From Clostridiales bacterium (GTDB lineage Bacteria > Bacillota > Clostridia > Christensenellales > UBA1242): DNA of 64,000 nt. Location: positions 139,085-203,084 of the forward strand of contig SVHS01000001.1 of assembly GCA_015055745.1 (NCBI GenBank). The letters run 5' to 3'. Positions 26,135 through 28,886 of this stretch are shown here, one piece after another; positions within the stretch are counted from its first letter, which is position 1, and each line of letters opens with the position of its first letter. The notes below the pieces were generated by a model. It saw only the letters and a program-made list of their open reading frames with translations, did not search any database and had not been told where the DNA came from. Made by a program: the position numbers and the translations under genes.

Positions 26135-26166
26135 TAAAAAAAACATGATAAAATCATGTTTTTTTC
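26135..26166. terminator. bidirectional terminator shared by the WG-repeat gene (+) and SRP RNA (-)
   Basis: A-run, AACATGAT-AAA-ATCATGTT, T-run. Confidence 0.75.
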
Positions 26167-26171
26167 ATGTA

Positions 26172-26449
26172 AGTGGTAAGTTGCACTGGTCAAATTCGAA
26201 ACAAATTGACTGCTGGCATAATCACGATGTACTCCACCAAAGCAACCCTATAGCACATACTGTATCCTTCTTAATGCTGCTACCTTCCGGTCCTGACATG
26301 GTTCGTAGGGCAATATTGTATAAGACCTTGATTTCAACGTGCATTGAGACTACTCAACACAACCAAATTTGCCCCTCAGTTTGCCGTTCGGCCTCACTGT
26401 AGTGGATTGTGAGTACAGGGCACCACTAGCTCCCCGCCTAGCACAACTC
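26172..26449 (-). ncRNA. ffs: signal recognition particle RNA, long Bacillus type (scRNA with Alu domain)
   Basis: The reverse complement contains GCTAGGCGGGGAGCTAGTGGTGCCCTGTAC at the 5' end and CATGTCAGGACCGGAAGGTAGCAGCATTAAG (conserved domain IV), both matching B. subtilis scRNA as I recall it. 5' GAGTTG pairs with 3' CAACTT. Promoter and terminator are correctly placed. Confidence 0.85.
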
Positions 26450-26484: not shown

Positions 26485-26500
26485 GTCTTTTTAAAAAAAA

Positions 26501-26539
26501 TTGATAAGAAATATCAAAAACTTTGATAAGAAATATCAA
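26501..26539. promoter_or_regulatory. two tandem copies of palindrome TTGATA-N5-TATCAA (period 22 bp), candidate operator
   Basis: TTGATAAGAAATATCAA at 26501-26517 and 26523-26539. A degenerate third copy (TTTTGATGATAAAT) follows. Confidence 0.45.
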
Positions 26540-26611
26540 AAATTTTGATGATAAATAAAAAAAGAATTTGAAAATTTGCTTTCATATGATATAATATAAG
26601 CGGAGAAATTT

Positions 26612-27331
26612 ATGAAAAAATCAAATGCTGAGAGATTTATTACGGCGTATAACAATATTGATTATAGTCTTAGGACTATATATGATTTCAAGCGTAGTAT
26701 GTCATTTAGTGATGTGGTGAGACGTAGCGTGGTGTTAAATTCTGTAGTGAGAAAATATGAAGAAGATTTGATAGACTATGGTAGGCTAAGAAATGCTATC
26801 ATTCATCAAGGTAATCATAAATACATCATCGCGGAGCCTCATGATGATATAGTGGAGAAGATAGAGCGCTTAGCAGAGCTGATATCTGAGCCACCACTTG
26901 CTGTAGATATGGTAGGTAATAAAGAAGTCATCACCATAGATGCACATATGAGCATATCTTCTGCTATAGAGCTTATTTATAGGACAGGATATTCAAATCT
27001 GCCTACTTATGATGGAGATAGACTTGTAGGTATATTAAATGGCAGAAAGCTCATCACAGTATTGGGTCAAAAGATAAGTATCGGTGCCAATATCCAAGAA
27101 TATATCACAAATACGACAGTGGGAGAAATTATTGGAGAGATGGGTGAAGACTATTATTTTATACTAGCTGATGAGTCTTTGAGCATTGATTCTGCTATGA
27201 ATTTCTTTGAAAATAATAGAAAGCTATTGATAATACTCATCACAAAAGATGGAAAAGATACGGGAAAACCCTTGAAAATTATATCATCTGCTGATATAAT
27301 AGACATGAAGAAAATTTTGGACGTGTATTAA
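26612..27331 (+). CDS. HEPN-like N-terminal domain fused to a CBS pair
   Basis: 239-aa ORF with SD GGAG. The N-terminal helical domain ends in GRLRNAIIHQG (R-x4-H). Two CBS repeats follow (VDMVGNKEVITID...GILNGRKLI; VGEIIGE...KIISSADIIDM). Confidence 0.6.
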   Translation: MKKSNAERFITAYNNIDYSLRTIYDFKRSMSFSDVVRRSVVLNSVVRKYEEDLIDYGRLRNAIIHQGNHKYIIAEPHDDIVEKIERLAELISEPPLAVDMVGNKEVITIDAHMSISSAIELIYRTGYSNLPTYDGDRLVGILNGRKLITVLGQKISIGANIQEYITNTTVGEIIGEMGEDYYFILADESLSIDSAMNFFENNRKLLIILITKDGKDTGKPLKIISSADIIDMKKILDVY

Positions 27332-28176
27332 TGAAAATAGCTAAATTATGGAAAGATTATACAGTATTATCTACCGCAAATGGCGAAAAACTTGAGCGTA
27401 TCGGTGGATATACTTTTTTACGACCTGATCCTCAGGTAATATGGCATACAGATAAAAATCTATCTACAAATGTAGATGCTTACTACAAGAGAAAGGAAAA
27501 CAAGTCTGGAGAGTGGAAGCTAAATCCTAAGATGCCAAAATCTTTCGTCGTAGAAAGAAAAGGTGTCAAGTTTCATATCGAGCCTATGAGTTTCAAACAT
27601 ATTTGCTTATTTCCAGAGCAGGCAGTCAATTGGGATATCATGACAGACCTTATCAAAAAAGAGAAACGAGAGATCAAGGTGCTAAATTTATTTGCATATA
27701 CTGGCGGAGCGAGTGTGATGTGTGCTTTGGCTGGAGCAAAAGTCACTCATGTAGATGCGGCTAAGAGTATGATCGATATAGCGAAAATCAATGCAAAACT
27801 AAATGGTATAGATTATATCAGATATATCTTGGAAGATTGCCAAAAGTTTGTAGAGCGAGAGATCAGAAGAGGAAACAAATACGATGCCATTATTATGGAT
27901 CCACCGTCTTTTGGCAGAGGTCCAAAAGGTGAGACATGGAAGATAGAGGAAAATATCTTTGATTTTGTACGTTTGTGTGGCAAAGTATTGAGTGATGATC
28001 CACTTTTTGTGTTGATCAATAGTTATACTACAGGCTTGCAAGCGAGTGTCATGGAAAATATACTAAACGCTACTATCCGAGGTGGCAAGAATGAGAGCTA
28101 TGAAGTCGGATTGCCTACTGAGGAAGAAGGTATAGTCTTACCTTGTGGTTGTAGTGCGATAAAAATATTTAAATAA
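27331..28176 (+). CDS. class I SAM-dependent RNA methyltransferase (PF10672/COG1092, RlmI-like catalytic domain without PUA)
   Basis: VLNLFAYTGGASV (SAM motif I), VTHVDAAK, AIIMDPPSFGRGPKGE (motif IV). The ATG overlaps the upstream TAA. Confidence 0.7.
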   Translation: MKIAKLWKDYTVLSTANGEKLERIGGYTFLRPDPQVIWHTDKNLSTNVDAYYKRKENKSGEWKLNPKMPKSFVVERKGVKFHIEPMSFKHICLFPEQAVNWDIMTDLIKKEKREIKVLNLFAYTGGASVMCALAGAKVTHVDAAKSMIDIAKINAKLNGIDYIRYILEDCQKFVEREIRRGNKYDAIIMDPPSFGRGPKGETWKIEENIFDFVRLCGKVLSDDPLFVLINSYTTGLQASVMENILNATIRGGKNESYEVGLPTEEEGIVLPCGCSAIKIFK

Positions 28177-28184
28177 GGAAAATT

Positions 28185-28886
28185 ATGAATATAGAACCAA
28201 ATATTATATACGAAGACAATCATATCATAGTGGTTATCAAGCCGCACAATATTTCTGTGCAAGAAGATGAGAGCAAAGATATCGATATGCTTACTATTAT
28301 CAAAGATTTTATCAAAGAACGTGACAAAAAAACAGGTAATGTTTTTCTAGGCCTTGTACATAGATTGGATAGACCGACTGGCGGTGTTATGGTATTTGCC
28401 AAGACTAGCAAAGCAGCTAGTAGATTGTCAAAACAATTGAAGGACAAACAGCTCAAAAAGAAGTATTTGTGTGTAATCAATGGTAGACCACAGCTAATAC
28501 AAAATCGTCTTACCACCTATCTCAAAAAAGACGAAAAGACGAACACTGTGCACATTGCGCCAAAATTGGAATTAGGTGCTAAAGAAGCAATCCTTGAGTA
28601 TGAAGTCATCGAGACCAAAAATAAATACACATTAGTAGAGGTAGACCTTATCACAGGTAGGAGTCATCAGATTAGAGTGCAGATGTCATCTCAGCTAAAT
28701 AATCCTATCTATGCAGATTTCAAGTATGGCGACAAGGACCATTCTGGTAATCTTGCATTATGGGCATATGAGCTTACCTTTACCCATCCTACTACAAAAG
28801 AAAATATGAAGTTTAGAGTCGCACCAGCGTATGACAATTCTATCTTCAAAATTTTTGAGCCGACTATAGAGAAGATGATAAACTAA
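28185..28886 (+). CDS. RluA-family pseudouridine synthase (no S4 domain)
   Basis: GLVHRLDRPTGGVMVFAKT catalytic-Asp motif, YLCVINGRP, GRSHQIRVQM. Confidence 0.8.
   Translation: MNIEPNIIYEDNHIIVVIKPHNISVQEDESKDIDMLTIIKDFIKERDKKTGNVFLGLVHRLDRPTGGVMVFAKTSKAASRLSKQLKDKQLKKKYLCVINGRPQLIQNRLTTYLKKDEKTNTVHIAPKLELGAKEAILEYEVIETKNKYTLVEVDLITGRSHQIRVQMSSQLNNPIYADFKYGDKDHSGNLALWAYELTFTHPTTKENMKFRVAPAYDNSIFKIFEPTIEKMIN

Follow-up and report, generated by a model that had tools for sequence, protein, structure and literature searches.

We examined a 64,000-nucleotide stretch of DNA (hereafter the window) from a Clostridiales bacterium (GenBank assembly GCA_015055745.1, contig SVHS01000001.1, forward-strand positions 139,085 to 203,084), and within it a run of three adjoining genes. 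Gene 1 encodes a protein in which an all-helical N-terminal domain (N-domain) resembling the HEPN ribonucleases (RNases) is fused to a CBS pair, gene 2 a class I S-adenosylmethionine (SAM)-dependent methyltransferase, and gene 3 an RluA-family pseudouridine synthase (Table 1). A first-pass annotation of this DNA had described three contiguous genes with a TAATG overlap and an 8-nt gap, and all of its coordinates were borne out: the TAA stop codon of gene 1 and the ATG of gene 2 overlap by one base (27329-27333), and 8 nt separate gene 2 from gene 3. The reading we favour, with a probability of roughly 0.55, is that gene 1 encodes a nucleotide-gated HEPN RNase of a widespread family, set here in a lineage-specific housekeeping operon for RNA metabolism.

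Table 1. Features of the three-gene locus, in coordinates of the window
Feature	Position	Strand	Description
Gene 1	26612-27331	+	239 aa; HEPN-like/CBS-pair protein, publicly annotated 'CBS domain-containing protein'
N-terminal all-helical domain, residues 1-98	26612-26905	+	AlphaFold2 model; probable minimal HEPN domain
D17-x3-R21, acidic [DE]x3[KR] motif	26660-26674	+	First helix; from family alignment
R60-N61-A-I-I-H65, Rx4H motif	26789-26806	+	End of helix 50-63; from family alignment
CBS pair, residues 99-239	26906-27328	+	First repeat canonical, second divergent
Gene 2	27331-28176	+	281 aa; class I SAM-dependent methyltransferase, PF10672
Gene 3	28185-28886	+	233 aa; RluA-family pseudouridine synthase, S4-less
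Promoter-like site TTGAAA-16-TATAAT	26568-26595	+	TG extension (extended -10); 11/12 consensus positions; consensus match only
Large bacterial signal recognition particle (SRP) RNA	26181-26446	-	Rfam RF01854, 150 bits

The family of gene 1 is widespread, chiefly in Bacillota, and its members are uncharacterised. When 1.84 billion representatives of 50%-identity clusters were searched exhaustively with a profile, 1,306 homologues were recovered at E<=0.001. Since these are of near-uniform length, almost all having 225-250 amino acids and typically about 235, the combination of N-domain and CBS pair is a conserved family in itself. The whole family became visible through the exhaustive profile search; when the N-domain by itself was used in a word-indexed search, nothing beyond fragments of close relatives came back. 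Where public records name a member, for example in Virgibacillus and Streptohalobacillus, the name is again 'CBS domain-containing protein'.

The N-domain (residues 1-98) was modelled by AlphaFold2 with a predicted local distance difference test score of 89.5 and a predicted template modelling score of 0.80, giving helices at residues 5-24, 32-39, 44-48, 50-63 and 78-92. The first-pass annotation had the domain ending at GRLRNAIIHQG. Its all-helical character and HEPN hallmarks held up, but this string occupies residues 57-67 and the domain runs on beyond it, through a conserved IAEPH and one more helix, to about residue 95. In an alignment of 91 diverse N-domains sharing 29-57% identity with that of the window, six residues are invariant (L59, R60, N61, H65, A74 and P76); an acidic residue (D or E) occupies position 17 in 86 sequences, and a basic one (K or R) position 21 in 75. 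An Rx4H string by itself is at chance level; it is the invariance of L59, R60, N61 and H65 in 91/91 sequences at this degree of divergence that raises the motif above chance.

HEPN RNases are recognised by an Rx4-6H motif, whose arginine is directly followed by N, D or H as a polar residue, and by an upstream Ex3[KR] motif; the active-site motif lies where core helix 3 ends and the loop to helix 4 begins (PMC3710099). The corresponding features are present in gene 1. The invariant R60 is followed directly by the invariant N61, helix 50-63 of the model ends with R60-N61 and places H65 in the next loop, ahead of the last helix, and D17-x3-R21 provides the upstream acidic motif. Profile searches gave weak matches to several HEPN families. 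Among the 91 N-domains, 58 matched HEPN_RiboL-PSP (best E=2.9e-4), 25 a HepT-like family (best E=1.3e-4), 11 DUF3644, 11 HEPN_Cthe2314 and 5 HEPN_Apea; DUF3644 is counted as a HEPN family (PMC3710099). The NCBIfam HepT_toxin model was matched by 11 of 98 full-length members. Apart from these HEPN-related matches, 28 of the N-domains matched DUF6548. When PDB sequences were searched with the family profile, the HepT toxin chains 5yep and 6m6w appeared at E about 0.5, with the LRNAIVH of the family aligned onto the Rx4H motif LRNIAVH, which we take to be the catalytic motif of HepT. Comparison by hhalign with a HepT alignment built here, which is rather narrow, set the motifs in the same register over 65 columns (P=0.0086).

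HepT, the toxin of the type VII HepT-MNT system (Shewanella SO_3166), is the closest solved HEPN domain to gene 1 by sequence, although the similarity is non-significant; its LRNIAVHDY aligns with LRNAIVH, as does the helix that precedes it. The two differ in setting. HepT is paired with an MNT antitoxin, whereas gene 1 would be regulated through its fused CBS pair, and no gene for an MNT nucleotidyltransferase antitoxin was found near gene 1, so the locus does not qualify as a HepT-MNT system.

Several results weigh against the HEPN assignment. The N-domain of the window protein had no match in Pfam, NCBIfam or PADLOC, and none of the single matches to HEPN families reached a curated threshold. 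The domain is also short, at about 95 residues, and aligns to HepT from HepT residue 48 on, so that one core helix is possibly missing. Foldseek found no significant counterpart of the N-domain model among PDB structures or viral models. Comparison of the N-domain with HEPN families, as the first-pass annotation had suggested, thus gave a confident helical model and conserved motifs but no significant profile or fold match. The sequence evidence for HEPN homology is convergent but weak. Taking both sides together, we consider it likely that the N-domain is homologous to HEPN, and somewhat better than an even chance that gene 1 is an active RNase.

Alternatively, the N-domain might be a non-catalytic module, whether a HEPN-like one in the manner of MtlR or a helical domain of other origin, and gene 1 would then regulate transcription, translation or a partner enzyme under the control of its CBS pair. 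The failure of the window protein to match any HEPN family significantly would suit such a regulator, and regulatory HEPN families such as MtlR do exist; however, non-catalytic HEPN domains tend to lose the motif (PMC3710099), and the R, N and H of the gene 1 family are strictly invariant. One source names a homologue 'predicted transcriptional regulator', but we infer that the name probably derives from the CBS part, and neither a helix-turn-helix nor any other DNA-binding family occurred among the recurrent matches of the 91 N-domains. Similarly, two TTGATA-N5-TATCAA palindromes lie upstream of the gene 1 promoter, but they are species-limited, occurring in 2 of 81 loci. We therefore regard a non-catalytic role as unlikely.

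The CBS pair is the more securely identified half of the protein. Pfam placed a CBS domain at residues 103-151 (36.8 bits), this first repeat alone scoring above threshold. The canonical pair of the first-pass annotation thus stands for the first repeat; the second is divergent and sub-threshold in Pfam, and is backed by the family-alignment motif GIIT..D. In Foldseek comparisons the full gene 1 model aligned with solved CBS pairs over ~140 columns (probability 1.0, TM-score about 0.7 on the target), and solved CBS pairs also matched gene 1 by sequence. The protein accordingly carries a tandem-repeat CBS pair, or Bateman module. Two recently solved PDB chains that match the CBS part, 9zni_6 (E=1.4e-4) and 9znf_4 (E=0.18), are both described as 'CBS domain-containing protein', and have chain names typical of large complexes.

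Proteins of this general design are on record. HEPN-CBS and HEPN-CBS-HD fusions of the active Swt1-like/Abi2 HEPN group were catalogued in 2013 by Anantharaman et al., with alr3009 and Pelobacter propionicus gi 118580987 as examples, and in that computational work the HEPN-CBS proteins were proposed to sense nucleotide ligands and so to regulate RNA stability (PMC3710099). The Swt1-like affinity guessed at for gene 1 in the first-pass annotation agrees with this classification. Likened by description only, the 2013 fusions and gene 1 share an intact Rx4H HEPN domain and CBS repeats; the HEPN-CBS-HD fusions carry an HD domain, which gene 1 does not. More recently, DS-11 of E. coli (WP_000257686.1; NCBIfam NF053863), a single-protein anti-phage system composed of CBS and HEPN domains, was validated in 2026 in the DefensePredictor study; the CBS substitution Y157A, in the adenine pocket, and the HEPN substitutions R330A and H335A each abolish defence, and its authors proposed that the CBS domain gates the nuclease via an adenine derivative (PMC13092281). 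Gene 1 has the same two domain types and the same proposed logic, and by analogy the two proteins probably work on the same principle. With a prediction from 2013 and the validation of a sister architecture in 2026, this kind of protein must be regarded as already known, and the first-pass statement that no such system had been described survives only for the exact trio, of which we found no description. Term searches of PMC3710099 revealed no linkage to rluD, lspA, ileS or a methyltransferase ('pseudouridine' has 0 occurrences), and literature searches returned nothing on a combination of lspA, rluD and CBS.

The parallel with DS-11 raises the alternative that gene 1 is itself a single-protein abortive-infection effector, in which the CBS pair would sense an infection-related adenine derivative and activate the HEPN RNase. 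In DS-11 both domain types are needed for defence, and its model, DS11_antiphage, is the NCBIfam model matched by most members of the gene 1 family (70/98, best E=1.5e-10). The match of gene 1 itself, however, reached 13.3 bits (cut-off 260) and covered residues 102-142, a single CBS repeat, and that of an Enterococcus homologue was likewise confined to the CBS region. Furthermore, DS-11 has 365 residues and a C-terminal HEPN domain (Rx4H at 330-335), whereas in the 239 residues of gene 1 the HEPN-like domain is N-terminal (Rx4H at 60-65) and the CBS pair follows. Gene 1 is therefore not an orthologue of DS-11: the match is limited to CBS and far below cut-off, and the two domains come in the opposite order. 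PADLOC gave no match for gene 1, and in contrast to patchily distributed defence genes, or to DS-11 as a validated one, gene 1 is core and keeps a fixed syntenic position across its order (polA, SRP RNA, Ppx, MreB, MinD). Even allowing for one family member in a defence-island-like context and another with a weak SRA-like fusion (both described below), we think an anti-phage function for gene 1 improbable.

A wider comparison is with Csm6/Csx1 (CARF-HEPN), RNase L and Ire1 (KEN), where, as proposed for gene 1, a small-nucleotide sensor domain controls a dimeric HEPN RNase. Their sensors are CARF or ankyrin/kinase domains, whereas that of gene 1 is a CBS pair, and gene 1 differs from the Csm6/Csx1 group in having no CRISPR or cyclic-oligoadenylate context.

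For the gated RNase we favour, the mechanism we infer is one in which the CBS pairs would dimerise and bind an adenine nucleotide or related ligand, and ligand binding would set the geometry of the two HEPN domains. The paired Rx4H motifs could then form a metal-independent endoribonuclease site, so that the protein would act as a ligand-gated RNase on a cellular RNA. The precedent for such gating lies in the 2013 HEPN-CBS proposal and in the requirement of DS-11 for CBS Y157 and HEPN R330 and H335. Gene 1 would be co-transcribed with the RNA methyltransferase and the pseudouridine synthase, in an operon that may derive from an older linkage of its family to an ileS/lspA/rluD neighbourhood.

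The two downstream products were identified at family level, in agreement with the first-pass annotation. Gene 2 scored 56.1 bits against PF10672 (cut-off 27) and contains the motif I sequence VLNLFAYTGG and a DPPSF motif (27898-27912), consistent with a class I SAM-binding fold. Among NCBIfam models it came closest to RlmK/L, in the RlmK half (74.7 bits; cut-off 466); the RlmI model gave 50.9 bits (cut-off 712). The nearest solved chain to gene 2 was 2igt (E=1e-49), an uncharacterised Agrobacterium methyltransferase. Residues 103-230 of gene 2, the methyltransferase core only, also matched PADLOC mad2, the methyltransferase of the MADS defence system (E=8.8e-19), which probably reflects generic fold similarity. 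Gene 3 scored 112 bits against PF00849 and contains the HRLDRPTGG sequence (residues 59-67) in which Asp62 (28368-28370), read from the HRLD motif, is the catalytic residue; it is thus a member of the RluA family. The match to TIGR00005 begins at model position 72, indicating that the S4 domain is absent. Similarity to the catalytic domains of RluC, RluA and RluD was about equal, and since all equivalog models scored below their cut-offs, gene 3 could not be assigned a specific target.

Organisation of the three genes as one operon, proposed in the first-pass annotation, is supported by the promoter-like site 17 nt 5' of the gene 1 start, by the lack of any internal terminator-like site, and by retention of the one-base overlap between genes 1 and 2 in 24 of the 50 related genomes that contain the trio. 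A simple scan detected no terminator-like site from the promoter to 28886, nor directly after the trio. The promoter scan returned 21 promoter-like sites where 14.9 were expected. One of these (27272-27300, 11/12 consensus positions) lies in the 3' end of gene 1, directly before gene 2, and in such AT-rich DNA may be a chance match. The palindromes mentioned above form part of two 22-nt direct repeats (26496-26542) just 5' of the gene 1 promoter, each containing one TTGATA-N5-TATCAA. They look like an operator, but as a conserved operator they were discarded, being confined to contigs of the same species.

The setting of the trio is ordinary chromosome. The genes around it are polA and those for a major facilitator superfamily (MFS) transporter, a WG-repeat protein, Ppx/GppA, MreB and MinD, in the block order polA, MFS, SRP RNA, trio, Ppx, MreB, MinD, and the immediate neighbours of gene 1 are the SRP RNA and WG-repeat protein genes upstream and the methyltransferase and pseudouridine synthase genes downstream. 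A protein identical to that of gene 1 is found in Clostridiales metagenome-assembled genomes, and those with gene 1 or close relatives are labelled Clostridiales, Clostridia, Christensenella or 'Candidatus Onthoplasma'. The host is a Christensenellales ('Ca. Onthoplasma'-like) gut bacterium.

Within Christensenellales, gene 1 is core and syntenic. We used the best 80 of 466 matching species-level genomes, of which 62 had at least 2.3 kb of downstream sequence. The order gene 1, methyltransferase, pseudouridine synthase was found in 50 of these, down to 46% identity in gene 1. In a further 8 (loci L067, L068, L072-L074, L077, L078 and L080), ileS takes the position of the methyltransferase gene, in some loci preceded by a small membrane-like open reading frame (ORF) of 170-327 codons without a family match, and the pseudouridine synthase gene comes next in 7 of the 8. 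The remaining 4 had other arrangements. We considered whether the gene 1-ileS loci might be under T-box control, but no T-box leader was detected upstream of them and the idea is unsupported. In 8 of 9 scanned Christensenellales loci, seven of them of the ileS type, the gene 1 homologue has an SRP RNA gene upstream in divergent orientation. The presence of this RNA gene even in loci of the ileS type suggests an ancestral unit consisting of the SRP RNA gene and gene 1, then a variable middle gene, then the pseudouridine synthase gene.

These results qualify the co-conservation of the trio in two ways. The genes flanking it are conserved across related genomes as well, and since the whole surrounding block is syntenic, co-conservation of the three genes is mostly a matter of general synteny. 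Conversely, conserved synteny alone is no proof of a housekeeping function, a point that must be counted against our preferred reading together with the defence-like settings of two family members, L087 and L111, which make a defence role for the gene 1 family possible. In the first of these, the family member (L087:5001-5708) sits amid an HNH gene, a WYL regulator, two DUF4145 (HEPN) genes and large helicases; unlike the window, this setting looks like a defence island. The second is a 374-residue ORF (L111:277-1401, minus strand) in which a ~140-residue N-terminal region is joined to the HEPN-CBS body. The extra region has a weak SAD/SRA match below threshold (E=3.6e-4), and from its sequence this protein may represent a form able to sense modified DNA.

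Outside Christensenellales the company kept by gene 1 homologues changes. Five distant members sampled singly, that of L087 among them, had unrelated, non-recurrent neighbours, and the trio was present in none of the 4 distant singly sampled loci with enough flank (L092 among them). Three more members lay on short contigs, one of which was long enough to show that the neighbours were again unrelated. Metagenome contigs were scanned with a degenerate DNA pattern biased towards AAT-coded Asn and LRNAIVH...AEP. This recovered at least 85 true family members, 51 of which, among the matches listed, had at least 1.2 kb of downstream sequence. Downstream of these 51 we found lspA-rluD in 8, methyltransferase and pseudouridine synthase genes in 3 and ileS in 2, and the other 38 had neighbours without any recurrent family. 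Conservation of the trio, which the first-pass annotation had proposed to test, therefore holds within Christensenellales but not beyond. The methyltransferase is a local addition, and most family members stand alone.

The lspA linkage was found in Bacilli. In an Enterococcus record, a Listeria record and Lactobacillales-like contigs, lspA comes immediately after the homologue, and rluD follows lspA wherever the contig is long enough (Enterococcus, L095 and at least 8 metagenome loci). The Enterococcus record contains fhs, the HEPN/CBS gene, lspA, rluD, a PyrR leader, pyrR and pyrP. An S4-containing rluD, a PyrR leader and pyrR likewise follow lspA on a Lactobacillales-like contig; the Listeria record, of 2.2 kb, runs from the HEPN/CBS gene into lspA and then ends. 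The lspA-rluD(-pyrR) cluster of Bacilli is a well-known housekeeping arrangement. Compared with this and with the ileS-lspA linkage, the window has neither lspA nor ileS, its pseudouridine synthase gene is S4-less where the rluD of Bacilli contains S4, and a PF10672 methyltransferase gene occupies the middle position. Overall, linkage of the gene 1 family to an RluA-type synthase is seen repeatedly, in two classes, by way of a housekeeping cluster of ileS, lspA and rluD.

Two of these records, L090 (OR849199.1) and L091 (OR846607.1), were deposited as Listeria and Enterococcus 'phage' (UNVERIFIED_ORG) but look like host chromosome. By tblastn, nearly no homologues were found in plasmid or phage records: 3 plasmid matches, and 2 'phage' records resembling host DNA. 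A transposon study of E. faecalis concerns what may be a member of the family: the CBS-domain protein EF1724, conserved in all 24 Enterococcus species examined, was important for fitness in rich medium. This phenotype could be explained by polar effects on lspA or rluD. Judging from the order of locus tags, EF1724 is possibly the gene upstream of lspA.

The distribution of neighbours bears directly on the logic proposed in the first-pass annotation, namely that gene 1 is a ligand-gated toxic RNase and that genes 2 and 3 modify its targets for protection or repair, all three forming one module. HEPN-like motifs and a CBS sensor in gene 1 are compatible with such a module, as are the gene 1-2 translational coupling kept in 24 of 50 related genomes and the linkage of a pseudouridine synthase to the gene 1 family in both Clostridia and Bacilli. 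Yet nuclease and modification genes do not occur together wherever the nuclease occurs. The methyltransferase adjoins gene 1 in a subset of one order and in 3 of the 51 broadly sampled loci listed, ileS replaces it in sister genomes, and no such partner accompanies 38 of the 51. The synthase of Bacilli is an ordinary S4-containing rluD, behind lspA and ahead of a PyrR leader, and the synteny extends over the whole neighbourhood, beyond the trio. A rarely linked methyltransferase and mostly solitary family members fit poorly with an obligate toxin-protector pair, and we consider this explanation very improbable.

If gene 1 is indeed a gated RNase with a housekeeping role, many Bacillota, including Listeria and Enterococcus, would possess a small nucleotide-switched RNase in the core genome rather than on mobile elements. 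The principle of a CBS-gated HEPN domain, as in DS-11, would then extend to ordinary RNA metabolism, and RNA decay that depends on energy or a second messenger would have a concrete candidate in this family. The trio of the window adds little further, being one lineage's version of a variable operon. Of most interest is that a core-genome link to rluD, lspA and ileS recurs, which hints at a housekeeping over a defensive role for a HEPN RNase in bacteria. A more specific version of the same reading, which we put forward as speculative and rather unlikely, is that the family is a core-genome adenine-nucleotide-gated endoribonuclease acting on the translation apparatus; it might, for example, cut immature or unmodified 23S ribosomal RNA or transfer RNA when energy charge falls. 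Were this so, placement before rluD-type synthases, ileS and an rRNA-type methyltransferase would reflect a real tie to ribosome biogenesis or quality control, and bacteria would have, in this protein, a housekeeping equivalent of eukaryotic Las1 or RNase L.

Two minor observations remain. An 85-residue ORF on the plus strand (26145-26402) was rejected as a conserved gene, since it runs antisense to the SRP RNA gene, and what looked like protein conservation in tblastn results from conservation of the RNA. Finally, the family member at L103 has, as read, a long basic low-complexity N-terminal extension; the start codons for L103 and L111 are putative.

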